This document shows positions 6,401 to 57,023 of a stretch of 64,000 nt of DNA, in pieces (position 1 is the first letter of the stretch; each line of letters opens with the position of its first letter). The DNA comes from an uncultured bacterium (GTDB taxonomy: Bacteria > Patescibacteriota > Minisyncoccia > Phycocordibacterales > UBA918). The translations under genes were made by a program, and so were the position numbers. The stretch covers positions 4,881 through 68,880 of the forward strand of contig CBFGXL010000002.1 in assembly GCA_965652925.1 (NCBI GenBank), given 5' to 3'. Below the pieces are notes generated by a model that was given only the letters and a program-made list of their open reading frames with translations, searched no databases and had not been told where the DNA came from.

Positions 6401-9400
6401 CCGCTTGCCTCCGCAGCTGCGCGGGCGGTCCACGTGATGCCGTCGGGTGAGGTCATGACGCGATTGGTGCCTGTGTGTGCTACCGCCACAAACGTGCTAT
6501 TACCATAGGCGACCGAGAACCAATCATTAGCCTCCGCAGCTGCGCGGGCGGTCCACGTGATGCCGTCGGGTGAGGTCATGACGCGATTGGTGCCGTCAGA
6601 GGCGACCGCTACAAACAGACCTTCACCATACGTGACTGATACCCACGAGTTAGCTTCCGCGGCAGAACGGGCGGTCCACGTGATGCCGTCGGGTGAAGTC
6701 ATGACACGGTTGGTCCCGTCAAAGGCGACCGCTACAAACAGACCTTCACCATACGTGACTGATATCCACGAGTTAGCTTCCGCGGCAGAACGGGCGGTCC
6801 ACGTGATGCCGTCGGGTGAGGTCATGACGCGATTGGTGCCATCTTGAGAAACGGCAACAAAGGTTCCATTGCCATAGGTAACACCGAGCCACGTCTGATT
6901 ATTGCCTGGAGTACTTCGTGCGGTCCACGTGATGCCGTCGGGTGAGGTGATGATTTGGTCATCTCCATCATACGCAACTGCAACAAAGAGACCTTCCCCG
7001 TAGGTGACTGAATACCAGCCTTGTGTTGACACGTTACTGCTTGTCCATGTTGTTCCTCCTTCAGCATTTGATCCGGAGGAAACCTTGACCACAAGATTGT
7101 TAAATGCCGAATCAGAGCTTAAAGCGCCGGTGAGCGTCTGGTCATTACCTGTAAGAGTAGTTGTCCCTGTTCCCCAGTCAATTGTTCCGTCATTGGTGTA
7201 ATCCCCTGCAATCGACATCAGCGCCGGCGCGTCGACCGTGGTCGATGCAGTGATGGTGAGGTCGCTTGTTGAAGCGTTGTTCTCAAAGACAACACCTCCT
7301 GCAAGACTGCCGCTGTTGGAGGTCATGACACGGTTGGTGCCAGTATCGGATACAGCTACAAGCATTCCATTCCCATATACCACCTCCATCCATCGATTTG
7401 CTTCTGTAGCAGGCGTACCTGTCCACGTGATGCCGTCGGGTGAGGTCATGACTCGGTTCCCTCCTGCTGTAGTGTTGCAGCTAGCGTTGCCGATTCCGCA
7501 TGCAACCGCGACAAACGTATGGCCCGTATGAGTGACCGACTCCCAGTTGTCGGCAGGCGCCGTTCGCTCGGTCCAGGTGATGCCATCGGGTGAGGTCATC
7601 GCAAGCGCAGTTCCATTTCCTACTGCAACAAAGAGTCCTTCGGCGTAGACAATACCGTGCCAAGACGACTGCGTCACAAGGGGCGTCCTTGTGGTCCACG
7701 TGATGCCATCGGGTGAGGTCATGATCGTACCATCCCATGATAAAGCCACAAAGAGGCTGTTGCCGTAGGTGACTACACTCCACTGGCTTGCCTGGGCTGC
7801 AGTTCTATTGGTCCACGTGATGCCGTCAGGAGAGGTCATGACGCGGTTGGTGCCGTCAACTGAAACGGCTACGAACATATCATTTCCAAATGCTACGCTA
7901 TACCACGAGTTAGCCTGTGAGGCGGTTCGTGCGGTCCAGGTGATTCCATCAGGCGAGGTCATCACGCGGTTGGTACCGCTTTCTGCTACTGCAACAAAGA
8001 TGCCATTGCCATATGTGACGGAGTTCCACCCAGCGGACTCGTCCGCAGACGTCCGAGCGGTCCATGTGATGCCGTCGGGAGAGGTCATTACATTATTTGT
8101 GCCTCCATTAGATACCGCAACAAAGAGTCCCTCGCCGTAGACAAGACCCTGCCACGAATTATTGGTAGCTGCACTGCGCGCGGTCCACGTGATGCCGTCC
8201 AGAGCAAGAGTCTGCGGACTATCAAGCGTCAGATCGTTGAACGCCGAAGTGCCGGTCATGTTGCCAGAGAGCGTGGTGGTACCTGTGTATACCGTTGATT
8301 CATCGTAATCAAGAGAATACGGAAACACTGTGTCTGCAGCCGCACCATATATGTATACTTTCGAGCCATCCGCATTGAACTCGATGCTGCATACGGAACT
8401 CTCCTGTGCAGATACCGATTCACCTGCTCCGTCGTATGTTGCAGTAGTTATGTCCCATGGCGTTCCGAGCGTGTACGGGAAAATGGTGTTTGAACCTGTT
8501 CCCACAACATACATCTTGGTACCATCGTCCTTAAGATGCACATCCTGCACAGCACTTTCCTGTCCGCTTATCAGGAAGGACTTGCTGTCATAGGTCGCGC
8601 TGCTGATGACCCATGGAGTTCCGAGCGTATATGAGTATATGCGATTGTTGCTGTCCCCGGATATATACATGCGAGTTCCATCCTCTGTAATGTGCATTCC
8701 GAATGGACTGACATCCTGAGCAATAGAGAAGGACGAGCTGTCATAGCTGGCTGTGGTGACATCCCATGGAGTTCCGAGCGTATAGGAGAATACAGCGTCA
8801 TTCTCTGAACCGAGCATGTACATCTTGGTGCCATCGGTCTTGAATGACACCTTCTCAACCCACTGGTCTTGAGCCAGGATACTGAAGGATTTGTTGTCAT
8901 ACACAGCTGTTGTGACGTCCCACGGGGTTGAAAGAGTGTACGAATACACCGTATCCATGTTGTACCCCGCTACGAACATCCGAGTGCCATCGGGACTGAA
9001 AGCAAGGCTTGTGATGTTATTCTCTTCGCTTGCAGTGGACTTCCCTGCGCCATCGTATACAGCAGTGGTGACGTCCCAGCCGCCGGTTACGGTGGTTGAA
9101 GCAGTAGTGGTTCCATTGATATACACAATGCCTGAGCCGCTGTTGAACGTGCCGCTGTTAGTGTAATCCCCCGTTATGGTCAAGGCGCTTGGGGCAGCCA
9201 CTGTAGAGCCCGAAGCGATCGAAAGATCGCTTGTGCTTGCATTGTCGCTGAAGGTCTTGGTGCTGTTGCCGGAGAAATAGACATCATTGAAAGCGCTCGT
9301 GCTTGCCATGTTCCCCTGGAGTGTTTGGGCCGTTGAGCCGGTGAAGTACACCGCTCCGCCGTTGTGTGTGAAGGTACCGTCGTTGGTATAGTCATCGGCA

Positions 9401-12400
9401 ATCGACAGCAGAGCAGGAGCAACAACCGTGGTCGAAGCGCTTCCGATAGTGAGATCGGTTGTTGAAGCATTGTCAGCAAAAGTGACCATGTTCTCGTACG
9501 AACCATCGCTTGAGACCAGAACCTGGTTTGTTCCGTCGGTACTTACGCCTACAAACTTACCTTCTCCATAGGTCAGGGACCTGAAGAAGTTCGTGTTTGG
9601 CGCGGTCTGTTCGGTCCAGGTGATGCCATCTTCTGAGGTCATGATATAGGTGCTTCCGGTTAATATATCGCCCAAAGATGCAAAGATACCTCCTCCATAG
9701 GCAAGTCCGTACCAGTCACTATTGCCAGGTGTAGTCCTTGCAGTCCACGTGATGCCGTCAGGCGAGGTCATCGCAGTATCGGTCTCACTGACCGCGACGA
9801 ATATACCTTCCCCGTAGACCACCCTCTGCCAGCCGGATGCGCTTGATGCACTACGAGAGGTCCAGGTGATGCCGTCTTGTGAGGTCATGACGCGGTTGGT
9901 TCCCGTATCGGAAACTGCAACATAGGTTCCATTACCGTACGTTATACCCATCCAATCATTTGCCTCTGCAGCTGTTCTGCCGGTCCACGTGATGCCGTCA
10001 GGCGAGGTCATAACGCGGCTGGTGCCGCTATACGCCACCGCAACGAATTGACCATTGCCGTAGGTGATTTCTCTCCATGTAGAGCTTTCGTCACCGGAGG
10101 TTCGCGCAGTCCACGTGATGCCGTCGGGCGAGGTCATGACGCGGCTGGTACCGGTGTTCGCAACAGCCACGAAGAGGCCGCCGCCGTACGTAACCGCTTG
10201 CCACGAATTTCCTACAGCTGGGGTGCGGCTGGTCCAGGTGATACCGACGGGTGAAGACATGACGTCTCCATCCCAGGAGACTGCGACGAAGGTCCCATTG
10301 CCATACGCAACGCCGCTCCACTGCGAGGACGCTGACGCACTTTCCTCTTCCCAGACAGCTGCTGTGTTAGCTAATTCTCCCGTTGAAGTGGCAGTAAGGT
10401 TCCCAAGCGCAGAGTTTCCGGTGAGATTACCCGAAAGGCTGCTGTTCCCTTCGATTACCATTGTGCCATCGTTGTGGTCGAACTCGCCGTTGTTCGTATA
10501 GTTGCCTTCAACCGTGATCGTCCCCGAAGGCGCAGTGACCGTCGCTGTTGCACCAATGGTCAAATCCCCCATCGCAACATCATTCGTGAAAGAAACCGTG
10601 CTGTCATCGGCGGTAATAGTGAAGTCGGCAAAAGTTGTCTCTCCGCTTCCGGTAAAATCCTTATCCGTGTCTGGAGTGCCGCCTCCTTCTGTGCCGGTGG
10701 TGAACTGGAAAACGTCCTGCTCATCAAAGCCGTACATGTACATTTTCACTCCATCGTTCCCAAAGGCAACCTGCATCGGGGAGAATTCAGTGAATGATTC
10801 TGCGCCGAAATCGAATGTCTCACCGCTGACAAGGACCGCTGTAGAGATATCCCACGCAGTGCTGAGCGCATATTCATACATGGCGGACGTAGAGTGGCCT
10901 ACCATGTACATATACATTCCGTCACTGGTGAAATGAATGCCTGTGGGGGTAGTATCCTGCGATGCAACAGAGAATGTCTGGGAAAAGACACCAGTAGAGA
11001 CATCCCATGCGACACTGAGGTTATATTGATGGACCGCATCACTGTTGCCTCCCACCACATACATCTTGGTTCCGTCAGAACTGAATTCCACTCCGTATGG
11101 GTTCGTTTCTTTTCCGCTTACGTCCAAGTAGTCAGTATATGAGGCTGAAGAGACATCCCACGGTGTGGACACAGCATATTCACCCACAGCCGCAGCGCCA
11201 TCTGCAGTTATGTAGAACTTCGTACCGGTATCATTGAAATAGAGGTCTCCAGCAAAGTCTTCCTGCGCCGCCACGCTAAAGGTATTGACCTGCGAAGCTG
11301 TTGAGAGGTCCCAGGCGCTACTGAGCGTGAACTCGCGAACGATGTCTGTTGACCAGCCGAAGGTGTACATCTTCAGTCCGTCTGAACGGAAATGGAGTCC
11401 TGCAGGTCCTGTGTCGGCAATACTTTCCAAGACACTGTCATAAGTTGCTCCGGCCACATCATAACCGACGGTATTGTTCTCAAGATCAATGGTCGTTGCT
11501 CCTGAGGCCTGCGTGAAAGTGCCGTTGTTAGTAAAGTCAGAATTGAGTGTAAGCGCGTCTGGAGCAGCCACTGTTGAGCTCGCAGTGATCGTGAATGCTC
11601 CATTCACTACTGCATCAGCAGTGAAGGTCTGTGTGGTATCTGCATAGGACCCGCTCTCTGAGGTCATGACGCGGTTAGTGCCTCCGTACGAAACTGCTAC
11701 AAAAGTATCTTTTCCGAAGGTAACAGAATTCCAGAATGTAGACTCAGCTGCGCTTCGTGCAGTCCAGGTGATGCCGTCGGGCGAGGTCATCACGCGATTG
11801 GTACCGCTCTCCGCAACGGCAACAAAGAGGCCATTGCCGTAGGTAACTGAAGTCCACGCATTTGCTTCAGCTGCTGTGCGCGCGGTCCAGGTGATGCCAT
11901 CAGGGGAGGTCATCACTTGATCCGTACCGCTTGTTGCAACAACCACAAATGTTCCCTCTCCGTGGGTAATTGAATACCACTGATGATCCCCCGCATCTGT
12001 TCGCGCGGTCCAGGTGATGCCGTCAGGACTTGTCATGACACGGTTCGTTCCATTATTTGAAACGGCTACGAAAAGGTCTTCAGCATATATAACTGAAGTC
12101 CAAGCGTTCGCTTCTGCAGCGCTTCGCGCGGTCCAGGTGATGCCGTCAGGACTTGTCATGACACGGTCAGTTCCACTTCCCACAGCAACAAAGAGGCCAT
12201 TGCCGTAAGTGACGCTGTACCACGTATCATCATTGCCTGCAGCCGAACGAGGAGTCCAATTGACCCCGTCAGACGAGGTCATAACACGATTCGTTCCCGT
12301 TTGAGCAACGGCTACGAAAAGACCATTGCCGTAAGTGACGCTGTACCAGTTATTTGCTTCAGCCTCAGCTCGAGCTGTCCACGTGATGCCGTCAGACGAG

Positions 12401-14928
12401 GTCATAACGCGGTTGGTTCCTGTTTCAGCAACAGCCACAAAGAGACCGTTGCCGTAGGTAACAGACAGCCAATTGTTTGCCGCAGATGCAGATCGCCCAG
12501 TCCATGTCACGCCATTATTTTCAAAATTGCTCACCGAGACTAAGAAACTTCCATCTGCTACCCCAGCTCTATTGACCCCATCAGAGTTGATCGCAACCAC
12601 CTTGCCGTCTCCATAGGTTATGTCTTCCCACTGCGCACTTTCTGCTTCATCGACAGGAGTCCAATTGATGCCATCAGTGGAGATCATGACCTGCTCAGCA
12701 AGATCGCCGTACCCGATCGCCACGAAATACTCGCCTGTAAAAGTAACTCCTATCCAGGACCCGTCATAGGTCGCGTCCCGCGCAGTCCAGGTTATGGCGT
12801 CAGGAGATGTCATGACATTCATGGTCCCGGCATTAAGGGATGAGACAGCTACATAGGTGCCGTTGCCATACGCGATACCATTCCACCAATTGTTTTCAGC
12901 TGCAGTGCGGTTCGTCCACGTGATACCGTCTGGAGAGGTTGCTACGCGGTTATCTCCCACAGCAACAAACTGGCTGTGTTCTTCGTTGAACATAACATTG
13001 TAAATGCCGTTGCCTGATGCGGTACCGGAAGACCACGTAAGACCATCGTCTGAATACATTGCGGTACCGTCGTACGAGAGCGCAACAAACCTCCCTTCGC
13101 CATACGCAACAGCAGACCACATATCTGCAGAAGCAGCAGTTCGGTTCGTCCACGTAATGCCGTCCTCTGAGGTCATGACGCGGTTAGTGCCATTAGGTGC
13201 CACAGCGACGAATCGGCCTTCGCCATACGCGACCTTTCTCCATTCGTTCGCCTGTGAAGCAGAGCGTCCTGTCCAGGTGATGCCGTCAGGAGAGGTCATG
13301 ACGCGAGAACCTCCCGCCGTTGCGTTACATGCGCCATCAACAGAGATGCCGCAGGCAACCGCCACAAAGAGACCTTCACCGTAGGTGACTCCTTGCCATG
13401 GGTGAGCAAGGCTCGGCGTGGAAGCGGGGATCCAGTGCGTTCCGGTGACCAGCACTCTTTGTGTCGAAGAACCAGTTACTATAGGACCATAGGAAATTTC
13501 GTTTCCGCTTATAGTCGCATCCACCGGAAACGAGGTTGTACCCGCAGTCAGGTCAAGCGTACCGTTATTTTCTAGGTCTCCTCCAAGTACTGTTGAAGTG
13601 GCACCAGTGAAAGTATCCCCGCTCCATATATAGAGCTTCTGCCCATCGTCGATTAAGAGCTCTCCATCTCCTTCCCTGACGACATAGGAAATATCCTGAT
13701 CATGCCTTCCGTCATAGGTTCCCATTTCATCAAGCGACGTAGCTCCATCATCCTCATTCCGGATGATGACGTGGTCTTGATAAAGATCCATACCACTGAG
13801 TGCCCCAGAGCCGGCAGTCAAAACAAGAGCACCCCTCGTGCTTTGGTCACCGTCCACCCAAACAACCGCAGTTTCGCCCTCAGCTGGAGCAGCAGAAATG
13901 CTCCAGTCACCGTTACTGTCGGTGGTTGCGGTGGATACTGTGCCGTCAACGTAAGCCTTTATAGTCTTGCCTGTGGTGATCGCTGTAGAGCCCTCATCAG
14001 CATATAGAGTCCCTGACAACGAGGGAGCAACTTCAAACTCTCCAGTGGAGATTGCTACCCAATCATAATTTCGCGATGCGCAGTTCGCATCCGCATCGTC
14101 CTCAAATTGAAGTGACACTCCAGTTGTTGTCTTTGTTCCAACCTCAGGAGAACACAGAGCAGCATTCACCCCTTGAGCCATGGCCACTACGATATAGCTC
14201 GTATCTGGGAATGCTGTTGAGAATGTGACCGAACCGACACCGCTGCCATTTGTAGTTGCACTGCCTGCTTTTATATTTGCCCCGTCAACCGTGTACTCCC
14301 CATGAGAAAATGCACAGTAATTGGTATCTGTCACCGCCTCTGTAGCTCCACCATCATCCTCGATGCGTATCACCGCCTGAGATGTGGTCTTGGAACCTGA
14401 ATTGAAGTTTACAACTGGAGAATCGGTGTCGGTGATAGCATTCGCAATAATTGAATAATTTGTATCCGGGAAAGCACTTGAGAATGTAACAGTGTTGTCG
14501 CCCGCGGTACCTCCGCTCACAGCACACTTCACATACTTGCTACTGCCGAGATTCCAATCTCCATATGTAAGTGCCATCCAGTTATTGCTATTGGCATTCT
14601 CTGCCGAACCCGTGTCATCTTCAGCAACAATGGTGAAGCCTCCGGCTGCTTTGTTGCTGTACGTCATGGAGTACATAACATCAGTTCCGGTCGACCCTCC
14701 ATTGAGAAGGATTGAGTAACTACTGTTGGCCATCGCTGAGCTAAAAGTGACGCCGACAGTACCTCCACTGGTGATATTTATAGCTCCTGTTTTGAATTCA
14801 AAAGATTGTGCATGTGCATGCCCAACAACGCCGAAGAAAAAGAGAGCGGCCAAAACACACCCCATCATTAACATATATATATATGAGGTGATTGATCTTG
14901 TATGAAGTTGTAAAGTGATTTTTTTCAT
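3427..14928 (-). CDS. Giant (3833 aa) secreted surface protein with three N-terminal H-type-lectin-like domains, more than 40 BNR/Asp-box-like 41-aa repeats in five blocks, two blocks of PD40/TolB-like ~55-aa repeats, beta-helix-like Thr/Asn-rich linkers, and a Gly-rich C-terminus.
   Basis: It is a single 11.5-kb ORF with an N-terminal signal (MLMMGCVLAALFFFGVVGHAHAQ). The repeated unit is NRVMTSPDGITWTARSAAEANSW.SVTYGNGLFVAVA, matching S-x-D-G-x-T-W. A second repeat class is FSSDGTKMYVVG..D.V..Y.L.TPWDVSTA. The N-terminus carries three ~90-aa VTFSSAFPDT.YSII...IRIEDD units. Confidence 0.85.
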   Translation of the reverse strand: MKKITLQLHTRSITSYIYMLMMGCVLAALFFFGVVGHAHAQSFEFKTGAINITSGGTVGVTFSSAMANSSYSILLNGGSTGTDVMYSMTYSNKAAGGFTIVAEDDTGSAENANSNNWMALTYGDWNLGSSKYVKCAVSGGTAGDNTVTFSSAFPDTNYSIIANAITDTDSPVVNFNSGSKTTSQAVIRIEDDGGATEAVTDTNYCAFSHGEYTVDGANIKAGSATTNGSGVGSVTFSTAFPDTSYIVVAMAQGVNAALCSPEVGTKTTTGVSLQFEDDADANCASRNYDWVAISTGEFEVAPSLSGTLYADEGSTAITTGKTIKAYVDGTVSTATTDSNGDWSISAAPAEGETAVVWVDGDQSTRGALVLTAGSGALSGMDLYQDHVIIRNEDDGATSLDEMGTYDGRHDQDISYVVREGDGELLIDDGQKLYIWSGDTFTGATSTVLGGDLENNGTLDLTAGTTSFPVDATISGNEISYGPIVTGSSTQRVLVTGTHWIPASTPSLAHPWQGVTYGEGLFVAVACGISVDGACNATAGGSRVMTSPDGITWTGRSASQANEWRKVAYGEGRFVAVAPNGTNRVMTSEDGITWTNRTAASADMWSAVAYGEGRFVALSYDGTAMYSDDGLTWSSGTASGNGIYNVMFNEEHSQFVAVGDNRVATSPDGITWTNRTAAENNWWNGIAYGNGTYVAVSSLNAGTMNVMTSPDAITWTARDATYDGSWIGVTFTGEYFVAIGYGDLAEQVMISTDGINWTPVDEAESAQWEDITYGDGKVVAINSDGVNRAGVADGSFLVSVSNFENNGVTWTGRSASAANNWLSVTYGNGLFVAVAETGTNRVMTSSDGITWTARAEAEANNWYSVTYGNGLFVAVAQTGTNRVMTSSDGVNWTPRSAAGNDDTWYSVTYGNGLFVAVGSGTDRVMTSPDGITWTARSAAEANAWTSVIYAEDLFVAVSNNGTNRVMTSPDGITWTARTDAGDHQWYSITHGEGTFVVVATSGTDQVMTSPDGITWTARTAAEANAWTSVTYGNGLFVAVAESGTNRVMTSPDGITWTARSAAESTFWNSVTFGKDTFVAVSYGGTNRVMTSESGSYADTTQTFTADAVVNGAFTITASSTVAAPDALTLNSDFTNNGTFTQASGATTIDLENNTVGYDVAGATYDSVLESIADTGPAGLHFRSDGLKMYTFGWSTDIVREFTLSSAWDLSTASQVNTFSVAAQEDFAGDLYFNDTGTKFYITADGAAAVGEYAVSTPWDVSSASYTDYLDVSGKETNPYGVEFSSDGTKMYVVGGNSDAVHQYNLSVAWDVSTGVFSQTFSVASQDTTPTGIHFTSDGMYMYMVGHSTSAMYEYALSTAWDISTAVLVSGETFDFGAESFTEFSPMQVAFGNDGVKMYMYGFDEQDVFQFTTGTEGGGTPDTDKDFTGSGETTFADFTITADDSTVSFTNDVAMGDLTIGATATVTAPSGTITVEGNYTNNGEFDHNDGTMVIEGNSSLSGNLTGNSALGNLTATSTGELANTAAVWEEESASASSQWSGVAYGNGTFVAVSWDGDVMSSPVGITWTSRTPAVGNSWQAVTYGGGLFVAVANTGTSRVMTSPDGITWTARTSGDESSTWREITYGNGQFVAVAYSGTSRVMTSPDGITWTGRTAAEANDWMGITYGNGTYVAVSDTGTNRVMTSQDGITWTSRSASSASGWQRVVYGEGIFVAVSETDTAMTSPDGITWTARTTPGNSDWYGLAYGGGIFASLGDILTGSTYIMTSEDGITWTEQTAPNTNFFRSLTYGEGKFVGVSTDGTNQVLVSSDGSYENMVTFADNASTTDLTIGSASTTVVAPALLSIADDYTNDGTFTHNGGAVYFTGSTAQTLQGNMASTSAFNDVYFSGNSTKTFSDNASTSDLSIASGSTVAAPSALTITGDYTNSGTFNSGSGIVYINGTTTASTTVTGGWDVTTAVYDGAGKSTASEENNITSLAFSPDGTRMFVAGYNMDTVYSYTLSTPWDVTTAVYDNKSFSILAQDQWVEKVSFKTDGTKMYMLGSENDAVFSYTLGTPWDVTTASYDSSSFSIAQDVSPFGMHITEDGTRMYISGDSNNRIYSYTLGTPWVISSATYDSKSFLISGQESAVQDVHLKDDGTKMYVVGTGSNTIFPYTLGTPWDITTATYDGAGESVSAQESSVCSIEFNADGSKVYIYGAAADTVFPYSLDYDESTVYTGTTTLSGNMTGTSAFNDLTLDSPQTLALDGITWTARSAATNNSWQGLVYGEGLFVAVSNGGTNNVMTSPDGITWTARTSADESAGWNSVTYGNGIFVAVAESGTNRVMTSPDGITWTARTASQANSWYSVAFGNDMFVAVSVDGTNRVMTSPDGITWTNRTAAQASQWSVVTYGNSLFVALSWDGTIMTSPDGITWTTRTPLVTQSSWHGIVYAEGLFVAVGNGTALAMTSPDGITWTERTAPADNWESVTHTGHTFVAVACGIGNASCNTTAGGNRVMTSPDGITWTGTPATEANRWMEVVYGNGMLVAVSDTGTNRVMTSNSGSLAGGVVFENNASTSDLTITASTTVDAPALMSIAGDYTNDGTIDWGTGTTTLTGNDQTLTGALSSDSAFNNLVVKVSSGSNAEGGTTWTSSNVSTQGWYSVTYGEGLFVAVAYDGDDQIITSPDGITWTARSTPGNNQTWLGVTYGNGTFVAVSQDGTNRVMTSPDGITWTARSAAEANSWISVTYGEGLFVAVAFDGTNRVMTSPDGITWTARSAAEANSWVSVTYGEGLFVAVASDGTNRVMTSPDGITWTARAAAEANDWFSVAYGNSTFVAVAHTGTNRVMTSPDGITWTARAAAEASGWFAITYGDGLFVAVADTGTNRVMTSPDGITWTARAAAEANDWFSVTYGNGTFVAVGDIEAGSNRVMISNSGSRVDGTIRFSTPVEASKFISQTPGVTFEFPAYATSTFASLRIDGEEGGEAILRSSKEGTQWGLDVTTPISVTYVDVQDSNACSGNPNITATDSTDSGNNTCWDITGGEPVPGTISSASNQVFGYGQATTTIATITITDGETPAITAANDLRIKIDTSATDMLWDTTDTTATFGGTASGKVANPVSYENGGATLVVPVSNDFVGSDTLTISGLSFVQFGTVNTATSTLVLITESAGEDGGSAWTAHSAAQANSWSSVAYESELLVAVAENGTNRVMTSSDGSNWTARSAAGDNDSWSSITYGEGIFVAVSTGGSDDPIMTSPDGITWTARSVATDQIWSEVTYGSGKFVAVGCGGYDNGCGTNASVMSSDDGITWSAQAVSGNWQSVTYGNGLFVAVGSGNTRVITSPDGTTWTPRSAAGDNDWWTSVTYGNGLFVAVGSGSDRVMTSPDGINWTARSAAGDNDSWASVVYASDLFVAVGSGSDYVMTSPDGNNWTVRTAAEANQWSSITYASDLYETGTLVAVANSGTNRVMTAPGSSVAQITATDDKTIAIHGAATLSEHTAGQVENEFSYQNQSDVPLYTFRLAPEGENATISSAAFALSGIRRIDSSNLSDLRLYRDNNSDGSVDAGDNQIGGAGEISVTEQSGTVTFSTSWSATTTKDYILTSDVSGVLTNEYVTISLPTTGLSGTGATTAGAIVPLGSVSSVQHIRGGNNGSGALHAAEVGGEAPEGDGDVGGGGSQGGGGVGEEDNGEEIGNEPGFEAPSATGELYSEWTGGSNALSSDGVYATAASTNLRQSYSLFGFNVPGGNTVQGIEVKLEASGSTGAGTIQVALSWNGDSSVTATKATSVLTGSDAVYTLGGPSDTWGRGWTPAELGDANFVVRVIGQPDQNTVRVDAIQVRPYTQAGGGGGGGGGEI
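6299..6913. repeat. Five or more tandem copies of a 123-bp (41-codon) unit with very high nucleotide identity inside the 3833-aa gene, encoding BNR/Asp-box repeats.
   Basis: The core cgggcggtccacgtgatgccgtcgggtgaggtcatgacgcgattggtgcc recurs starting at 6299, 6422, 6545, 6668 and 6791, an exact 123-bp period. Confidence 0.85.
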
Positions 14929-14931
14929 ACG

Positions 14932-17900
14932 CTATGGTGTTACTTCTATGCTTTGTTCTTCTGCTGTCTCGACCTGCGGTTCTTCTGCAACTTCTTCTTG
15001 TGTCCCCTCTTCTACAACTGGTTCTTCTGCTGTCTCCTCTGTTTGTGGTTCTTCTGTAGGTTCATTCTGTGGCTGTAATTCTGTTTCCTGTGGAGGTTGT
15101 TCTGTCTGCGGCTCTTCAACTGGCGGTTCTTCCTGCATGGCGTCCTCCGGAGGAGGCGGGGTTGCTTCGGTATCGCCCGTGCCACCCTCAGTCTCCCCGC
15201 CTCCTTGCGTTTCAGAAGGCGCAGGTTCCTGCGGTTCTTCCTGCGGCGGAGGTGTCTGTTCCCCGCTTCCTGAGCCATTACTTGGTCGATTGACTTCCAG
15301 CAAGAGTGCACGTAGGTCGTCTGCTGTGAGGCATACACCGTCCACACAAAGCTCGTTTTCAACATATACATTTTCTGCACGCAAGCCCGCAACATTGAGC
15401 ACACCGTCAACAAAGCCCTGCGCGAGCGTCTTGACTCGATCCCAGAGCGTTTCTTCTCCATCACTGCCAAGGACGACATCCGTTGAAGTTGACGTCAGTT
15501 CAGCAAGGAGCGACTCTGCATTAGCCGGATGCCAGCCCAAGTTTACAAACATGAGCGCCTGGCCGACTTTCACTGCCTGCCCGTCTGCGATCTCCTCTTC
15601 CCGCGCATCTTCGCGCGCCAGATCACGCAACGCATCTTGCATTTCCTCGTGTTCGTCAGCAATTGCTGTCTCAACAGACTCGAACCGCTGTGTATCGCGC
15701 GGTGTACACTCCTCCTCTTCCTCGCCGAGTGCGACGCCGCCACCGAAGTAACATCCATCGTGGATGCGCTCATCATCCTCTTGCGAAAGCGGATCGGTCT
15801 TCGGTTCTGCGATATCGTCACCGAACTGATCAATGAATCCTTCCGAATATGCATACTCGCCGTCATAGTCTTCAAGTGCCACACCTACAACCGTGCCGCT
15901 TTCTGTTGCCTTCATACCAACTCCCGGAATCGACGAGAGCATGATCTTGTCCCCTGCCTTGATCGGTCCATTCTCTGTTGAAAGCTTCACCGGCACGCGT
16001 CCTGAAAGTGCAACTGGGTAACCTTCTTGTCCAGAAGTTAAGGAGGTGTCGTCAAATCCGAGTGTGAGTCCCGGCTTGGTTGAGACCACGCCGATGATGT
16101 TCGCACTGTTCTCTTCGTCGGCGCGTTCAATACTGAGGATTCCAGCGGTAGCAATGATCTCTCCTGGCTCAAGGTCCTCTGAGGAGAAATACATTTCGGC
16201 CAAGTCAGAGTTGCCAACTGCCGATGAAACAGACGTGATCTTTCCTGTTGTTGACGCATTACAGCTACCGTCGTTGTCGACACACAAACCCCCGTAACCG
16301 ATCTGCAATCCCGCCATGTTGTTGGTAGTACCGTCTCCGATGGTCGTTGTACCGTGTGCAGTGACCGTGAACTTCGATGTCCCTGCGTTTTGGAAGTCGA
16401 CAAATTTTGAGGTAGTTGATGAGAACGATCCTCCCGAGTTGCCGAAGTTCATTACCAAGCCAGTGCCAGCAAATGCAGACGTATCTTGGAAGAGGCTTAC
16501 GAGGTCTTCGGTAGTGATCGAAGCCGAGTATGCCCGAATGGCATTTCCTTGCGTTGTGCCACGTGTCTGAGCGAAGACTCCAGCAGGCTGGAAGGTACCT
16601 CCTGCGTCACCCTCAGTAGTACCGCGCACACCGAAGGTTCGTCCGAATGCAGAGATACCGGTATTCTCTCCTTGTGTATTGGTGCCACGATGTGCCTGTA
16701 CTTCCAAGCCACGCACAGTGTTCCCAAGCGCAGTATCGTCCTCAATACGAAGCATCTTTCCTACGAGTGTTGAGGTCGCTGTTGGCGCGTTCACTATATA
16801 TGAATTGTCACCGTAGTAGACCGCGCTTGCCGATGAGTTTGTGAAGTTGAAATACTGATGAATGCCCGCAGTCCTCGAACCACTAACGCTCGTTGTCCCC
16901 ATCGCGAGCAGTGATGAAGGCGTGGTGGTACCGATGCCAACAAACCCAGTATCAAGAATACGCATCACGTCAGTTCCACTGCCCGCCTGGATCGTAACGT
17001 CAGCACCGGTGTTATGTGCACCAATTGTGAAGAGATCCGAAGTGTGATTCCAGTTTATCTGTGCACCAACACCGTCAGAAGGAGTTCCGAAGTAGATCAT
17101 CGAGTTAGACGCATCGGGTGTCATGAGGGTAAGGCCAGCATTGCCTGAACCTTCAAGGACAAGTTCATCAGCAGCACTATTCACTGCAGCCCCGCTTGCT
17201 CCACTATACACATGGAGTTTTCCATTCGGAGAGGCAGTTCCTATACCAATATTTCCCGCCCCATTGATCACAAGTCGATCATTAGTACCTAAGGCTGATG
17301 ATGATGAGATCTTGAACTTCGCTCCGTCAGAGTCATCGATACCGATACTCCACTTTTCGTTTGCACCGGAGACCGTTGAGAATTCAATTGCAGCGTCTGC
17401 GGCATTATTGAAGATAGAAAGTTTTTGGTTTGGTGTTGAGGTACCGATACCCATTCGACCATTGGTCAAAGTCGCAACACCATTCCAACCAGCAACATTG
17501 AAAGTGAGGTAGTTTGAGCCGCTCGTAATTGCATTTGCATTACTTGTTGCGTCTAACTCAATATAATCGCTCACACTAGATGGATTGGTTGAACGTATAG
17601 CGCCGTACACATCAAGTTTTGACTGAGGACTTGTAGTACCAATACCCACATTACTCGCAGGAAGAAGTGCGAGATTGCCAGCAGAGTTTCCAAACACAGT
17701 TGCACCATTGTTCTCTACCTCGAGATATGCAGAGCGGTCGTTACCAGAGTCAAAAATATTCATGCTGAAACCATTGAGAATTTCTGCATGTGATTCAATA
17801 CTTACAACATCTCCACTACCAAAGAGTGTTGGATAACCAGATGCTTCGTTCAAGCTCACAAAAAGATAATCACCGCTTGCTCCTGTCATGGTGAAGTCTC

Positions 17901-20900
17901 CATTTGAAGCAATGGATACACCCTCATCGCCTCCATCTCCTGAGAGGAAGTTGGAACCGAGCGCGATGTTGGCGGCGTTACCTGAGAGCGTGAGTGTTGA
18001 CGTAGCGCTCAATGCTGAGAATGTTGCAGTACCTGAGAATGCAGGCGAACTTGAGAACACTGCGCGTTCAGTACCTGTTTCGTCGGTGAGTATTGCCGCA
18101 AGCTCTGCTGAAGTATCGATATCAGATGAGGAAAGCCCACCCCCACCAAGACCAAGCGTCGAGGTGGCGACCCAGTTGAACCCTGAGCCGGTTGATTGCA
18201 AGATCATGCCGTTGCTTCCTGCGCTGTTACTGTTGTCGTATAAGGCTCCGGTGATACGAGCACTCCCAGCGACAGTGAGCATCTGCGACGGTGTTGAGGT
18301 ACCGATGCCAAAGCGGCTTGAGGACATGTTCACTGATGAAAGTGTATTTGCAGACGTGGTTGCCGGTATGTTTGCAAAGAGGAAGTTCCCGATGTTGAGG
18401 AAGTTTGAGGTGTTAGTAGACGTACCCAAGGTATTGTTACCGATCATGATGTTGTTGAATCCGGTAGTTATATTGCCGCCAGTTGTAGTGGTGTTGTCTT
18501 TCGATCCAAGGTAGATGTTGCCGTAGCCAGTGGTGTTGGCATAACCAGCCCGATAGCCTAAAGAGACATTATTAGATCCGGTGGTGTTATTTTGAAGACC
18601 ACTCATGCCTACTGCCGCATTGTTCCTACCCGTAGTGTTGAGGAGTAGAGCATTCCTACCAAGGCCGGTGTTTCCTATACCAGTGAGATTGCCTGAGAGG
18701 GCGTAATTGCCGAGGGCGGTGTTGTTCGAGCCGGTAGTATTGACATCAAGTGTGTCAACACCTATTGCCACATTGCTATTACCCGTGGTGTTTGAGAGAA
18801 GCGAACCACTACCGAAAGCAGTGTTAGCAATTCCTGTGGTATTGGCGAAAAGTGAAGAATAGCCAACGGCAGTGTTTTGATTTCCTGTAGTGTTAGAGTA
18901 GAGCGTATTGATACCGACAGCAGTGTTCGAACCTCCCCCAGTAATAGAAGATGGCAGTGCGTTAAAGCCGCTTGCATAGTTGGTTCCGCTCTCACCCAAA
19001 TTCATAAGCCGTGTGCCATTACGAGCAAAGAGATTGATTGATGGGGTGTAGGTAATTTCCCGAACAGAAACGTTATCGATAGTATATAAGGTGCCCTCAC
19101 TATAGTATGAGCTATCTACGAATAGCGTGTCAGTTCCCGTGTAATCAGCAGTGAAAATAACTTGATTCTGTGCAAAGTAGCTATTATTTCCTTGAAGGCT
19201 ATTATTGGTGAAATAAACAGAGGCAGAGGAGCTTGCGGCGCCGCTAAAATCATATTGGATCAGATAGGTGTGCCCTGCCACGGTAGAAATGTTTTGTGAG
19301 ACAGTCGCATCGTTACATGCAGAAACACACGATACGCGGACATTGTTGCTGTTGTATGAAGCATCAGAACCAAGCGTCCAACCAGTGGCACTACCGGTGA
19401 AGGAACCGTTCGTAATGAGCTCGCTGCCGATGATAGTGCTTGAGGCTTGAGCGGTGAGTGAGGCGTACGAGGTAGAAGTTCCTATAGTAACCGTCTTGCT
19501 GTGAAGATCATCGGTAATACGAGCACTTCCTGCAACAGTGAGGAGCTGAGATGGGGTTGTGGTGCCGATACCGACGTTGCCAGTGCCTGTAACGGTGAAG
19601 TCAACGCCTGCATCACCTCCTGTCTCGACACTTAAATTACCAGATGCATTCATATACAGAAGTGCGTAGGTTGAAGGATTATAAAGTCCGATACCAGCAT
19701 TCGAAGTGCCAGATGTCTCTGTGATCTGTAAAAATGGGTAGGTAGATGCGACCAACTCGATATCATCAGCAGGCGAGGTCGTACCAATACCTATACGTCC
19801 CGCGCTCGTAACGAAGATACCCTCATCCCCTCCATCTCCCGAGAGCCAATTAGAACCAAGTGCAATATTTGCGGAAGATCCTGAGAGCGTGAGACGTCCT
19901 GACTGTGTGGTAGTTGCAAAAGAACCTGTACCGGTAGCAGTAAGGCTCGAGAAGGTTGCCGTACCGGAGAACGCAGGAGCGTTCGAGAAGACGAGGCGGC
20001 CGGAGCCGGTTTCATCGCCAACAATGGCAAGCAGTTCGCTTGAAGTATCAAGAAGACCGTTGTGAGTGAGGGTTGCGTCTGCAACGATCGCGTCGAGTTC
20101 TGCGTAGGTGTCGATATCTGCTGAGGTGAGACCGCCCGTGATGCCGAGTGTTGAAGTCGCAACCCAGTTGAACCCTGAGCCGGTAGACTGCAAGACCATA
20201 CCGTTTGAACCTGCGCTGTTGCTGTTGTCGTAGAGAGCTCCGGTGATGCGGGCTCCTCCGGCGACCGTCAAAAGTTGAGACGGGGTTGAGGTTCCAATAC
20301 CCACATACCCCGCCCCATTGATCACTAGGCGATCATTGGTACCAAGTGCTGAAGAAGAAGAGATCTTGAACTTAGACCCGTCGCTGTCATCAATGCCGAT
20401 CGTCCACTTCTCATTTGCTCCTGAGATAGTTGAGAACTCGATCGCAGCGTCTGCGCCGTTGTTGAAGATAGAAAGCTTCTGGTTAGGAGTAGTGGTGCCG
20501 ATACCGAGGCGGCCAGTTGAGAGGATGAGTCCTGCCCTATTGTTTGATGAGAGAAGTGACGAAGAAGCAGTGCCCTCGATGGTGAGTGCGCCATTAATGA
20601 GAGCATTCTGACCGACGTTGAGTCCACCGCGCACATTCACCCCTTGGTCGAAGGTTGCAGTTTGCTTGGTGCGGAAGATGTCGAAGAGTCCAGAGCCCGC
20701 GAACATGTTGGAGACGGTGAGGCCGGAGATATCGATTATGGCGAGGTTGTTGGAGGCAGACCCTGTCACGTACACATAGTTGCCGGAGACACTGACAGAT
20801 CGGGGACCATCCATCACATTTGCGTCATTTGGATCCCAATTACCGACGGTGACCGGTGCGGCCGGATCAGAAATATTGACGATAGCGAGGTTCTGTGAGA

Positions 20901-23802
20901 GACCTCCGCTTACATACGCATAATTACCGGAAATTGCGACCCCTTGCCCGTAGTTCATCACATTTGCGTCATTTGGATCCCAATTACCGACGGTGACCGG
21001 TGCGGCCGGATCAGAAATATTGACGATAGCGAGGTTGTCCGAAACTGCACCTGATATGTATGCATAGTTGCCAGAGATGGCAGCGAACTGAGGACTATCC
21101 ATCACATTTGCGTCATTTGGATCCCAATTACCGACGGTGACGGGATTTGCGGGATTTGAGATGTCGATTATGACGAGGTTATCTGAGACGCTACCTGCTA
21201 CATACGCATAGTTGCCAGAGACCATAACGAAACCAGCATTATTCATCACGTTCGTATCATTTGGATCCCAATTACCGACGGTGACGGGGTTCGTTGGGTT
21301 GCTGATGTCGATTATAGCGAGGTTGTTAGAGACTCTTCCAGGTACATACGCATAGTTGCCTGAGACCTCAACAGAAGAAGGATAATCCATCACATTTGCG
21401 TCATTTGGATCCCAATTACCGACGGTGACCGGTGCAGTTGGGTCTGAGACATCAACGATGACGAGATTGTCAGAGTTAGCTCCCGATACATACGCATAAT
21501 TTCCAAAAACGCTAACACGAGGTCCGCCATCCATCACATTTGCGTCATTTGGATCCCAATTACCGACGGTGACCGGTGCGGCCGGGTCGCTGATATCGAC
21601 GATTGCAATATTATTAGAATTATTCCCTCCAACGTATGCATAGTTCCCTGAGATAGTGCCGTAGGTTGTCCCACTCATCACATTTACGTCATTTGGATCC
21701 CAGTTGCCAATTGTTGTTGGGGTGGAGACGTTTCCGAGAATATGCGCACTTCCCCATACGTCGAGCTTCGCAGAAGGTGTGGTCGTTCCAATACCCACAT
21801 TCCCGGCACTCGTCACATACACACCCTCATCTCCTCCATCTCCCGAAAGCCAGTTGGAGCCAAGCGCGATGTTTGCAGCTGTGCCTGAGAGCGTGAGGGT
21901 TGAGGTTGCGGTCAAGGCAGAGAATGTTGCGGTGCCCGAGAATGCAGGTGAACCTGAGAAGACAAGACGGCCTGAGCCGGTCTCATCATCCATGAGCGCA
22001 AGCAGCTCAGAAGAAGCGTCGATCTCGTCAGCATTGAGTACCGCGATGCCTGATTCCTGAAGCGCAATGCTTGAGAAGTTAACAGTACTGACGCCTGTGT
22101 TGGAAGTGATATCCACGAAGTTGGCACCACCTGTAGCATCGTCGAAATTGAATCGAAGATCCTCGTCGTTTCCATTCCCCTGTCCTTGAATGATGAGCAT
22201 ACCATCTGCATCAGTATCAAGAAGAACGCCTGTTGACGATGAATCGATACGGATCGAGGTGGCCTCGAATTGATTGTTCACCGTGAGAACTTCAGAGGAA
22301 GTTACCGACAATGTCACGTCGGTGCCTGCAGGAGAAGCCTCCCATGCAATCGATTCAGCATTCCCGAGCCGCAATACACCAGTGTCTGCAACATCAGCGT
22401 TGGTTGAGGCGAAGATGGGGCTAAGAGCGCTCGTTGTGAATGTCGGACTGGTACCAAAGACCAAGGCTCCTGAGCCGGTCTCCCCCGTCACTGCAGTAGC
22501 TAGGTTGGCGCTTGAGGGGGTCGCGAGGAACGTAGCCACGCCGGTACCAAGGCCTGAAACTCCCGTACTGATCGGAAGACCTGTTGCGTTGGTTAAGGTA
22601 CCGCTTGACGGCGTCCCGAGTGCACCGCCATTGACGACGAACGATCCAGCAGTACCGACGTTTACGCCAAGTGCTGTGAGGACTCCCGTACCTGCTCCGG
22701 TGAGTCCGGTAGAGATCGGCAACCCAGTTGCGTTGGTGAGCGTTACTGCAGACGGCGTGCCGAGGTTCGGGGTGGTGAGTGTTGGTGAAGTTGCAAAAAC
22801 AAGGGCGCCGGAGCCAGTTTCGTCAGTGAGTGCGTTCGCAAGTGCCGCCGAAGCAGCGGTTGTGGTAGCACGGCTTGAAGAATCGAGGAAAAGCGCCCGT
22901 GAAGCGGTCAGTGAGGAGAACGTGACTGCGCCAGAAAGTGATGGGGTTGCGAGGGTGGGACTCGTCCCGAAGACTGCCGCTCCTGAGCCGGTCTCGTCTC
23001 CTAGGATTGCTGCGAGTTCTGCGGAGGTATCGATGAGTCCATTGTGTGTCAGGGTGACGTCAGCAACAATAGCATCGAGTTCTGCGTAGGTGTCGAAGGC
23101 GCTTGTTGAAGCATAGAGCGTATTGAGGTAGGTGGTGTTGATGGCAAGGGTGTTTCCTGAGTTCTGGAGGCCTGTACCGGTAAGATCAGTGAACCGCTCC
23201 CCATTGACCACGAGGTTCGTGGTCGTCGCTGTTATCGCCGTAAGCTGCGTGATCGTAGACGATGCGTTGCTTATAAGTCCGCCGGTGAATGTGAGCAATC
23301 CTGAAGCAGTATCAGCTTGATCGCTGCGAAGGAGCGAGGTTGAGGCAACGCCGCCCACCGTATCGGAATCAGCGGCATGTTCTGCTTCAAAAGCGGCAGG
23401 GACTGCGCCAATGACCTTTCGTGGAGTCATTTCAGCATCACCTTCGATCGAAACCCCGAGGTACAGTGGCTGATTAAAGTCCACACTTGTTAAAGGAGTA
23501 GTGCTACCAAGCATAATGGAGAACAAACCACTGGTAACCTGCACCTCATTGGTCAGTGTCTCTGTCCAGATGGGTGAACCACCCGTTGCTTGGGTATAGA
23601 GCGAAAATTCCATGTCATAGAGACCGTCAGCAACAGCTATGCTCGTTGAGGCCGTTAATTTTCCCTGGTAGTTGATCGTGGGTGTAAATGCCGCCAAAGC
23701 GTGTACTCCAAACAAGACATACAGTGCCACCACTCCGCAGAGTATGAGCGGCAGCAGAAGAATATGCGGTTGTATATACCGGTTATTCATTTCTGTTTTC
23801 AA
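14932..23802 (-). CDS. Giant (2956 aa) membrane-anchored surface protein containing an N-terminal tail-fibre-like domain, eight LVIVD repeats, G-I-G-T-T-x-P tail-fibre-like modules, a CBM4/9-like jelly-roll domain, Hep_Hag-like N-T-T-G repeats, and an acidic Pro/Glu-rich C-terminal tail.
   Basis: It is an 8.9-kb ORF with an N-terminal TM segment (ILLLPLILCGVVALYVLFGVHALAAF). It has eight 48-aa NWDPNDANVM...GNYAYV.G..S.NLVIVDVSDPTAPVTVG repeats (the LVIVD motif). The modules ELDAIV.DETGSG and G-IGTTTPS.KL recur several times. It carries ITNGSFTGSATGWT (CBM4/9-like) and a C-terminal tail PEEPQTEQPPQE.... Confidence 0.85.
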   Translation of the reverse strand: MKTEMNNRYIQPHILLLPLILCGVVALYVLFGVHALAAFTPTINYQGKLTASTSIAVADGLYDMEFSLYTQATGGSPIWTETLTNEVQVTSGLFSIMLGSTTPLTSVDFNQPLYLGVSIEGDAEMTPRKVIGAVPAAFEAEHAADSDTVGGVASTSLLRSDQADTASGLLTFTGGLISNASSTITQLTAITATTTNLVVNGERFTDLTGTGLQNSGNTLAINTTYLNTLYASTSAFDTYAELDAIVADVTLTHNGLIDTSAELAAILGDETGSGAAVFGTSPTLATPSLSGAVTFSSLTASRALFLDSSSRATTTAASAALANALTDETGSGALVFATSPTLTTPNLGTPSAVTLTNATGLPISTGLTGAGTGVLTALGVNVGTAGSFVVNGGALGTPSSGTLTNATGLPISTGVSGLGTGVATFLATPSSANLATAVTGETGSGALVFGTSPTFTTSALSPIFASTNADVADTGVLRLGNAESIAWEASPAGTDVTLSVTSSEVLTVNNQFEATSIRIDSSSTGVLLDTDADGMLIIQGQGNGNDEDLRFNFDDATGGANFVDITSNTGVSTVNFSSIALQESGIAVLNADEIDASSELLALMDDETGSGRLVFSGSPAFSGTATFSALTATSTLTLSGTAANIALGSNWLSGDGGDEGVYVTSAGNVGIGTTTPSAKLDVWGSAHILGNVSTPTTIGNWDPNDVNVMSGTTYGTISGNYAYVGGNNSNNIAIVDISDPAAPVTVGNWDPNDANVMDGGPRVSVFGNYAYVSGANSDNLVIVDVSDPTAPVTVGNWDPNDANVMDYPSSVEVSGNYAYVPGRVSNNLAIIDISNPTNPVTVGNWDPNDTNVMNNAGFVMVSGNYAYVAGSVSDNLVIIDISNPANPVTVGNWDPNDANVMDSPQFAAISGNYAYISGAVSDNLAIVNISDPAAPVTVGNWDPNDANVMNYGQGVAISGNYAYVSGGLSQNLAIVNISDPAAPVTVGNWDPNDANVMDGPRSVSVSGNYVYVTGSASNNLAIIDISGLTVSNMFAGSGLFDIFRTKQTATFDQGVNVRGGLNVGQNALINGALTIEGTASSSLLSSNNRAGLILSTGRLGIGTTTPNQKLSIFNNGADAAIEFSTISGANEKWTIGIDDSDGSKFKISSSSALGTNDRLVINGAGYVGIGTSTPSQLLTVAGGARITGALYDNSNSAGSNGMVLQSTGSGFNWVATSTLGITGGLTSADIDTYAELDAIVADATLTHNGLLDTSSELLAIVGDETGSGRLVFSNAPAFSGTATFSSLTATGTGSFATTTQSGRLTLSGSSANIALGSNWLSGDGGDEGIFVTSAGRIGIGTTSPADDIELVASTYPFLQITETSGTSNAGIGLYNPSTYALLYMNASGNLSVETGGDAGVDFTVTGTGNVGIGTTTPSQLLTVAGSARITDDLHSKTVTIGTSTSYASLTAQASSTIIGSELITNGSFTGSATGWTLGSDASYNSNNVRVSCVSACNDATVSQNISTVAGHTYLIQYDFSGAASSSASVYFTNNSLQGNNSYFAQNQVIFTADYTGTDTLFVDSSYYSEGTLYTIDNVSVREITYTPSINLFARNGTRLMNLGESGTNYASGFNALPSSITGGGSNTAVGINTLYSNTTGNQNTAVGYSSLFANTTGIANTAFGSGSLLSNTTGNSNVAIGVDTLDVNTTGSNNTALGNYALSGNLTGIGNTGLGRNALLLNTTGRNNAAVGMSGLQNNTTGSNNVSLGYRAGYANTTGYGNIYLGSKDNTTTTGGNITTGFNNIMIGNNTLGTSTNTSNFLNIGNFLFANIPATTSANTLSSVNMSSSRFGIGTSTPSQMLTVAGSARITGALYDNSNSAGSNGMILQSTGSGFNWVATSTLGLGGGGLSSSDIDTSAELAAILTDETGTERAVFSSSPAFSGTATFSALSATSTLTLSGNAANIALGSNFLSGDGGDEGVSIASNGDFTMTGASGDYLFVSLNEASGYPTLFGSGDVVSIESHAEILNGFSMNIFDSGNDRSAYLEVENNGATVFGNSAGNLALLPASNVGIGTTSPQSKLDVYGAIRSTNPSSVSDYIELDATSNANAITSGSNYLTFNVAGWNGVATLTNGRMGIGTSTPNQKLSIFNNAADAAIEFSTVSGANEKWSIGIDDSDGAKFKISSSSALGTNDRLVINGAGNIGIGTASPNGKLHVYSGASGAAVNSAADELVLEGSGNAGLTLMTPDASNSMIYFGTPSDGVGAQINWNHTSDLFTIGAHNTGADVTIQAGSGTDVMRILDTGFVGIGTTTPSSLLAMGTTSVSGSRTAGIHQYFNFTNSSASAVYYGDNSYIVNAPTATSTLVGKMLRIEDDTALGNTVRGLEVQAHRGTNTQGENTGISAFGRTFGVRGTTEGDAGGTFQPAGVFAQTRGTTQGNAIRAYSASITTEDLVSLFQDTSAFAGTGLVMNFGNSGGSFSSTTSKFVDFQNAGTSKFTVTAHGTTTIGDGTTNNMAGLQIGYGGLCVDNDGSCNASTTGKITSVSSAVGNSDLAEMYFSSEDLEPGEIIATAGILSIERADEENSANIIGVVSTKPGLTLGFDDTSLTSGQEGYPVALSGRVPVKLSTENGPIKAGDKIMLSSIPGVGMKATESGTVVGVALEDYDGEYAYSEGFIDQFGDDIAEPKTDPLSQEDDERIHDGCYFGGGVALGEEEEECTPRDTQRFESVETAIADEHEEMQDALRDLAREDAREEEIADGQAVKVGQALMFVNLGWHPANAESLLAELTSTSTDVVLGSDGEETLWDRVKTLAQGFVDGVLNVAGLRAENVYVENELCVDGVCLTADDLRALLLEVNRPSNGSGSGEQTPPPQEEPQEPAPSETQGGGETEGGTGDTEATPPPPEDAMQEEPPVEEPQTEQPPQETELQPQNEPTEEPQTEETAEEPVVEEGTQEEVAEEPQVETAEEQSIEVTP
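20680..21830. repeat. Eight or so tandem copies of a 144-bp (48-codon) unit with high nucleotide identity inside the 2956-aa gene, encoding LVIVD repeats.
   Basis: The core catttgcgtcatttggatcccaattaccgacggtgac recurs at 20821, 20965, 21109, 21253, 21397 and 21541, with diverged copies at ~20677 and ~21685, an exact 144-bp period. Confidence 0.85.
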
Positions 23803-41783: not shown

Positions 41784-41902
41784 GGAACTTAAGTTTCTTA
41801 TTGATTACGTGTAGTACAACTATACCGAAAGCGAAAAGTTGCGCGAAATCATTCCAACATGAACCATTTGGCAACTTTCGTAGGTTATAGTATACGAATA
41901 TT

Positions 41903-44567: not shown

Positions 44568-44582
44568 AATTAAAATTACATC

Positions 44583-45059: not shown

Positions 45060-45065
45060 TTAAAT

Positions 45066-47724: not shown

Positions 47725-47779
47725 GGATTTTGAATATCCTTTATAACACGCGGGAACGCGCGACTGTTACCTTGACAGA

Positions 47780-49150: not shown

Positions 49151-49189
49151 ATGTGCCTATTGTATCGCACATAATGACTCGCACGGAAG

Positions 49190-50125: not shown

Positions 50126-50141
50126 GTGCTGTACTGAATGA

Positions 50142-51281: not shown

Positions 51282-51286
51282 ATATG

Positions 51287-52977: not shown

Positions 52978-52980
52978 AGC

Positions 52981-57021: not shown

Positions 57022-57023
57022 AT

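Follow-up and report, generated by a model that had tools for sequence, protein, structure and literature searches.

The locus described here raises the question of how repeats of a single gene can be identical to the nucleotide over short stretches while differing from one another in between. It lies in a 64,000-nt stretch of DNA (hereafter the window) from an uncultured bacterium of the Patescibacteriota (contig CBFGXL010000002.1 of assembly GCA_965652925.1, positions 4,881 to 68,880), in which a gene on the minus strand at 14932..23802 encodes a giant putative surface protein carrying a tandem array of 144-bp repeats of the LVIVD family. A sequence-only reading of this DNA had described identical cores beside variable segments, and had proposed either the diversification of a binding surface or a recombination substrate. 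Here we show that identity between the repeats is mosaic, that synonymous divergence is far lower at the junctions between repeats than in equally conserved codons elsewhere, and that a haplotype circulating among strains carries the signature of gene conversion between neighbouring repeats. We consider it probable (at roughly 0.75) that the array is a seven-bladed LVIVD β-propeller in which short-tract gene conversion between blades operates beside a blade-specific variable ring.

The gene was delineated from open reading frames (ORFs) and their translations and from gene calls on strain contigs. Counted from TTG, the ORF encodes 2956 amino acids; on two strain contigs (L015 and L024) gene callers start it four codons later, at the ATG at 23790, which gives 2952. 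In the translation, a hydrophobic signal or anchor segment is seen at the N terminus and a Pro/Glu-rich tail at the C terminus. LVIVD (PF08309) is the sole Pfam family in the protein, matching in seven tandem stretches with 181.2 bits against a gathering cut-off of 20.2 (E = 1.9e-54); searches of PHROGs and NCBIfam added nothing beyond an unannotated phage family overlapping the same region. Tandem Repeats Finder reports a period of 144 with 5.5 copies and 74% matches at 20809-21603. Taking these results together with the recurring GNWDPND anchors, the AlphaFold model and Foldseek matches described below, we define the array as seven 144-bp units, that is, seven 48-residue LVIVD blades, at 20701..21708 on the minus strand (residues 699-1034). 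From the N-terminal side these are blade 1 (21565-21708), blade 2 (21421-21564), blade 3 (21277-21420), blade 4 (21133-21276), blade 5 (20989-21132), blade 6 (20845-20988) and blade 7 (20701-20844), all on the minus strand, with their anchors at residues 699, 747, 795, 843, 891, 939 and 987. The 144-bp LVIVD repeat noted earlier is therefore real; its count of eight is not, as there are seven anchors and 28 predicted strands (seven times four), and of the supposed diverged flanking copies, the one at ~21685 is where blade 1 begins and the one at ~20677 is the body of blade 7.

An AlphaFold model of residues 665-1051, built with an alignment of 34 homologues, predicts a seven-bladed β-propeller with a mean predicted local distance difference test (pLDDT) score of 88, rising above 90 for the blades alone, and a predicted template modelling (pTM) score of 0.85. 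The 28 strands occupy repeat positions 14-20, 23-28, 33-38 and 46-3. Blade 7 holds just three strands of its own (E336-360), and the first strand of the model, TTIGNW (21700..21717, minus strand; residues 696-701; DSSP strand E32-37), belongs to no blade of its own; in the model it completes blade 7 as its outer, fourth strand, the usual N-terminal or 'velcro' closure. Against the PDB, Foldseek returned seven-bladed propellers, namely Sb-PTE (5hrm, E = 8e-13), the WD40 domain of beta-TrCP and Lp49, and a profile search likewise gave 5hrm as the nearest solved relative (E = 1e-9). By sequence alone no close solved structure was found in the PDB, nor one of the LVIVD GNWDPND subtype. The array is thus confidently predicted to form one seven-bladed LVIVD β-propeller.

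Over their full length, the units share 62-78% of their DNA and 54-81% of their protein sequence, with a median blade identity of 66.7% over the 21 pairs. Within this background, a 42-nt core at the junction of blades 6 and 7 (20812..20853, minus strand), encoding ..VTV GNWDPNDANVM, recurs exactly on the same strand at 20956-20997, 21100-21141, 21388-21429 and 21532-21573, and in a diverged copy with four mismatches at 21244-21285. The earlier tally of six exact copies, starting at 20821 and onwards, reduces to five: the 37-mer then quoted is exact at 20817, 20961, 21105, 21393 and 21537, its counterparts at 21249 and at 21681 (the start of blade 1) carry four and nine mismatches, respectively, and it occurred in none of 100 shuffles. 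The longest exact tract is longer still, with 81 nt at 20956..21036 (minus strand) identical to 20812-20892, covering codons 33-48 of blades 5 and 6 together with codons 1-11 of the following blade, within units that are 77% identical overall. 'Concerted-evolution-level identity', as the array had been described, is therefore apt for the junction core and this 81-nt pair and not for full units, at 62-78%. In a Sawyer-type permutation test on polymorphic sites, runs of identity were longer than expected (P < 0.0005), with 28 polymorphic sites identical in one run. The identity is mosaic, not uniform, and significantly so.

Synonymous changes resolve this mosaic further. At codons conserved in amino acid, the fraction of blade pairs differing in codon choice is 0.10 in the core (codons 46-48 and 1-11) compared with 0.57 in the remaining scaffold (Mann-Whitney P = 5e-5). 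By the Nei-Gojobori method, the core has a proportion of synonymous differences (pS) of 0.17, a synonymous divergence (dS) of 0.20 and a proportion of nonsynonymous differences (pN) of 0, whereas scaffold codons 17-40 have a pS of 0.67, a dS of 1.7 and a ratio of nonsynonymous to synonymous divergence (dN/dS) of 0.08. An account without any exchange would have one blade amplified recently and then diverging in the ordinary way, the cores being the most constrained codons and the patches unconstrained loops. Recent amplification is the explanation given for the highly repetitive prokaryotic β-propellers, with a median blade identity >60%, by Pereira and Lupas 2022 (PMC9218822), who read gene-specific blade signatures as independent amplifications; the median here lies above their criterion, and dN/dS at the variable positions is about 1, as such an account would have it. 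It predicts, however, uniform synonymous divergence. The eight-fold gap in dS between equally conserved codons cannot be produced by a single amplification followed by uniform divergence but can be produced by inter-blade exchange. The unbiased codon usage of the gene, the 81-nt exact tract within 77% identity and a strain tract that copies blade 4 into blade 3 (see below) also speak against amplification alone, which we judge improbable.

The core might instead be kept at the nucleotide level for its own sake, as a GATC/GGATCC methylation or restriction motif, a translational pausing signal or an RNA element. GGATCC does occur once per blade (at 20831, 20975, 21119, 21263, 21407, 21551 and 21695), accounting for seven of the nine sites in the 64 kb, and the same TGG GAT CCA AAT is used by the related loci L002-L004. 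The motif, however, is simply the Trp-Asp-Pro codons TGG GAT CCA, it is not kept in every relative (Pro is CCC or CCT in L001, and Asp is GAC in two blades of L004), and GATC is not enriched overall, with 287 occurrences found against 248 expected. The mRNA of two units is no more stably folded than its shuffled versions (z = +1.18), no Rfam family was matched, and relatives lack a core-specific drop in synonymous diversity. On these grounds selection on the nucleotides themselves appears somewhat less probable even than the amplification account. RNA structure was ruled out as the reason for the identical cores by the folding score and the lack of an Rfam match, and codon bias by the near-even codon usage of the gene (AAT 0.47, GGT 0.34), from which the probability of one unit having the twelve degenerate codons of the core is 7.6e-6.

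Scans of GTDB genomes and Joint Genome Institute (JGI) metagenomes with the propeller returned no strain variant closer than 65%, and strain contigs were found by exact look-up of the neighbouring GatB protein, which about 20 public contigs encode in identical form. From these contigs came eleven assemblies that belong to one population with the window and extend into the giant gene, at 99.4-99.98% identity. Variable sites concentrate in the array: of those in the first 6.3 kb, 15 lie in its 1008 nt and 7 in the remaining 5292 nt (odds ratio 11, P = 6e-8); this count excludes L020, whose five core changes lie ≤23 nt from its contig end and resemble a neighbouring core. The largest cluster of differences defines two blade-3 haplotypes, one carried by the window, L015, L020 and L024 and the other by L014, L016-L019, L022 and L023. 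In these last seven assemblies, codons 35-44 of blade 3 (21289..21317, minus strand) carry 8 substitutions in 29 nt against a background of about 0.1%. Eight of the nine changes of the haplotype fall at sites where blades 3 and 4 differ, and all eight match the blade-4 base (Fisher P = 1.6e-5). Such a pattern is what ectopic gene conversion from one blade to its neighbour leaves behind, and it bears out the earlier suggestion that the repeats serve as a recombination substrate. Amino acid changes in the array among strains are confined to A829V, T837A and L876F, and at the hypervariable positions described below none of the 11 assemblies shows any difference.

The mosaic could in principle have been made by the assembler from a collapsed or chimeric array. 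Six of the seven truncated short-read contigs (L016-L018, L020, L021, L023 and L025) stop inside the array, at gene nt 2247-2965, and the seventh stops 146 nt past it; the apparent variants of L020, ≤23 nt from a contig end, mimic a neighbouring core. Against this, all six independent assemblies that span the array agree on seven collinear units, with no gaps and 1-10 site differences from the window, and seven is the number of blades that the fold needs and that most relatives have. We regard an artefact as very improbable. As the array breaks short-read assemblies, such genes will often be fragmented or mis-called in metagenome bins.

To place the variable segments, we compared the window gene with other loci carrying the 48-residue GNWDPND blade type, which number 13 and include one in a complete Candidatus Moraniibacteriota genome. 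One of them, L007 (Ga0315277_10000045), encodes three successive GNWDPND propellers in one reading frame, in which 7, ≥5 and ≥4 blades, respectively, were detected, and its scaffolds are nearly identical both within and between its propellers (0.90-0.94 DNA identity). Across the 13 loci, within-gene amino acid diversity is 0.57-0.90 at positions 8, 12-15, 27, 29, 30 and 32 and ≤0.32 everywhere else; in the window gene, positions 16 and 18 vary between blades as well. The variable peptides quoted in the sequence-only reading are positions 12-21 of blades 2, 3 and 4. Of the variable positions, 8 and 12-15 belong to the 10-residue connection that leads from strand 4 to strand 1 of the next blade (loop 4-13) or to the start of that strand (14 and 15), and positions 27-32 to the end of strand 2 and the hairpin to strand 3 (loop 29-32), whereas the connections on the opposite face (positions 21-22 and 39-45) are conserved. 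In a four-stranded antiparallel meander, the strand 4 to strand 1 and strand 2 to strand 3 connections open on the same face. Strand 4 is taken as the outer strand because a long connection follows it and because the strand closing the propeller from the N terminus corresponds to a fourth strand; on this basis, the variable face would be the conventional 'top' face around the channel mouth. The nine variable positions are thus placed by strand topology in loops on one face of the propeller, around its central channel. The channel-mouth face is the usual ligand-binding face of propellers.

Within the window gene, the best scaffold DNA match of every blade is another blade of the same gene, at 0.80 compared with ≤0.73 to 14 other arrays. 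Within-array scaffold identity ranges over 0.71-0.95 across loci, some relatives reaching 0.91-0.95, and the window array is among the less homogenised. The ratio of dN at the variable positions to dS in the scaffold is 0.96 in the window gene, where synonymous sites are near saturation, and 2-4.5 in nine related arrays, with 2.5-4.5 in the more uniform relatives L006, L007, L008 and L011; these higher values are suggestive rather than proof of diversifying selection, because conversion itself lowers scaffold dS. No positional orthologue for a blade-by-blade dN/dS was found, the propeller of the syntenic relative L030 being different and L028 ending before the gene.

A conserved scaffold with variable patches in a surface protein, and ratios of 2-4.5 in relatives, could also bring to mind a programmed mechanism of patch hypervariation, whether a diversity-generating retroelement, recombination with silent cassettes or phase variation of repeat number. 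None of the sizeable ORFs of the window encodes a reverse transcriptase, outside the array the window has neither a template copy nor a blade-like cassette, the variable codons are not adenine-specific, and the strains are identical at the variable positions and all have seven blades. We consider programmed hypervariation no more probable than an assembly artefact. Two specific candidates were ruled out for the window, namely a diversity-generating retroelement, with neither a reverse transcriptase domain in the ORFs nor a template repeat, and silent donor cassettes, for which tblastn and blastn searches with the array found nothing elsewhere in the window. Nor is active diversification of the window gene supported, given the ratio of 0.96, strains that are invariant at the patches and a fixed number of seven blades.

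These results bear on the original proposals as follows. The mosaic character of the identity is upheld by the core dS of 0.20 against 1.7 and by both statistical tests, and the clustering of variable positions on one predicted face by their location in the strand 4 to strand 1 and strand 2 to strand 3 loops. The proposed diversification of a binding surface survives as a pattern of conserved scaffold and variable patch; as an active process, it finds no footing in the ratio, the strains or the machinery encoded in the window. Comparison of strain variants, which had been suggested as a check, brought out the inter-blade conversion haplotype and no change at the hypervariable positions.

Several observations weigh against the reading that we favour. 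Four relatives show no significant excess of homogeneity in the core over the remaining unit, such that the junction cannot be called a universal conversion hotspot. Conversion in blade 3 is patchy, with two blade-4 bases inside the tract untransferred, and a linked change at unit nt 63 has another origin than blade 4. The placement of the variable positions on the same face is modelled from strand order and propeller topology rather than from measured distances. Finally, at a ratio of 0.96, the variable positions of the window gene could be simply unconstrained.

With these points in mind, we propose that conversion between blades and constraint on their variable patches together shape the array. 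The propeller would be a binding module within a giant secreted or cell-surface, fibre-like protein, its seven blades presenting a ring of blade-specific residues as an asymmetric binding surface that does not vary within the present population. The scaffold dS of about 1.7 suggests that, in their DNA, the blades are old paralogues. Short-tract conversion between neighbouring or nearby blades may re-homogenise the blade junction, which is the longest stretch without a variable codon (codons ~33-48 and 1-11), and would persist only where it is selectively silent, in the ~80-nt interval from the last variable codon (32) to the first strongly variable codon of the next blade (12). Tracts overwriting the variable patches would presumably be removed by selection, and the other conserved stretch, codons 21-26 (18 nt), may be too short to nucleate recombination. 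Conversion limited in this way would make the identity of the junction self-reinforcing and leave an identical core beside a variable segment. The surface location of the protein, ligand binding on the variable face and selection against conversion of the patches are the parts of this proposal that we infer.

The remainder of the giant gene (14932-23802) is also repetitive. Several long-range internal repeats, such as those pairing 17237-17461 with 20291-20515 and 17918-18060 with 21821-21963, are 74-83% identical, and a 32-nt motif of the 'GIGTTTP' type occurs in eight copies; the giant protein is assembled from duplicated modules. In L030, whose GatB is 76% identical and whose gene order is the same, a 3773-aa giant gene at 13261-21410 has a 42-residue LVIVD propeller near residue 2620 and none at the position of the window array, which suggests from sequence comparison that modules are shuffled between orthologous giant genes. 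Among the strains, tandem duplications further down the gene, of 300 nt in L014 and 497 nt in L019 (window 16062-16362 and 16944-17440), split the ORF into calls of 2605 and 2332 aa and a remaining part; they may be genuine structural variants or frameshifts, or may be loops made in assembly. L014 additionally differs at 38 sites in 283 nt (window 16258-16540), almost all synonymous, against the background of about 0.1%, and this cluster resembles either an import by recombination or a diverged duplicate lying beside the duplication junction.

Immediately downstream, a second giant gene at 3427-14928 (minus strand) encodes 3833 aa with DUF6242, EPTP propeller repeats and a C-terminal match to phage gp53-like tail fibres, such that two giant surface proteins stand in tandem. 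Almost all genes of the window are on the minus strand, and the whole 64 kb contains no tRNA gene and no match to an Rfam family. A large envelope-polysaccharide cluster at 40125-58172, with a fused ATP sulfurylase/APS kinase, a sulfotransferase, six group-1 glycosyltransferases, deacetylases, methyltransferases and a flippase, suggests by its gene content a sulfated surface glycan. At 60434-63761 (minus strand), a VirD4/TraG/HerA-like coupling ATPase (654 aa) adjoins a secreted protein with a Lamin-tail domain and PKD (461 aa).

Among known systems, the nearest in structure is the haloalkylphosphorus hydrolase Sb-PTE (PDB 5hrm), which is likewise seven-bladed and is the best match both by fold and by profile. 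Sequence identity is 16%, however, and Sb-PTE is an enzyme, whereas nothing in the window propeller suggests catalysis. The family itself was described by Adindla et al. 2004 (PMC2447325) as a unit of about 42 residues with four β-strands, a predicted β-propeller fold and cell-surface or secreted hosts. The window array agrees with this description in its strong hidden Markov model match in seven tandem stretches, its four strands per repeat and its predicted propeller, and its host would be a large protein of cell-surface type in an uncultured bacterium. It differs in a unit of 48 rather than 42 residues, the six extra lying in the conserved WDPND.NVM outer-to-inner loop, and this GNWDPND subtype was found at only about a dozen public loci.

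The highly repetitive propellers of prokaryotes offer a second comparison. With its median blade identity above the 60% cut-off, the window array resembles those of Pereira and Lupas, whose paper (PMC9218822) makes no mention of LVIVD, and in its conserved scaffold with diverse predicted hotspots it resembles the prokaryotic highly repetitive WD40 proteins of Hu et al. 2017 (PMC5587647), in which conserved repeats carry diverse predicted interaction-hotspot sites. It is unlike them in that its unequal dS and strain haplotypes indicate old blades that are still exchanging sequence, not recent amplification.

The closest parallel in mode of evolution is found in the WD40 repeats of fungal NOD-like receptors (NLRs) (het-d/het-e/NWD; Paoletti et al. 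2007, PMC1805685), in which gene conversion or unequal crossing-over between repeats accompanies a few hypervariable positions on the interaction face. As in these high-internal-conservation (HIC) repeats, the blades of the window group by gene and not by position, exchange sequence and vary at few positions of one predicted face. Unlike them, the window protein has another blade family and no NACHT/NB-ARC (NLR) architecture, its units are far less uniform (exact only in the 42-nt core), repeat number is not polymorphic in the six array-spanning assemblies, and positive selection is not demonstrable at a ratio of 0.96; the window propeller is not a member of the fungal group. A broader analogy, which we put forward tentatively and think rather doubtful, is that GNWDPND propellers might be the bacterial counterpart of the fungal repeats. 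They would serve as a recognition module in giant surface proteins of uncultured bacteria with small genomes, conversion holding the scaffolds alike and positive selection acting to diversify nine residues of each blade at the channel mouth and so to tune attachment to a partner or host surface, with the window gene an older, more differentiated member that is still converting. Read without that analogy, the array represents a known kind of repeat evolution, not a new mechanism, and a well-behaved example of it. It provides a clean bacterial case of DNA exchange among the blades of one propeller, ongoing on a population time-scale and confined to the stretch between variable patches, and it helps to define a small LVIVD subtype whose nine sharply hypervariable positions, on one predicted face, are the obvious place to seek ligand specificity in giant surface proteins of uncultured bacteria.

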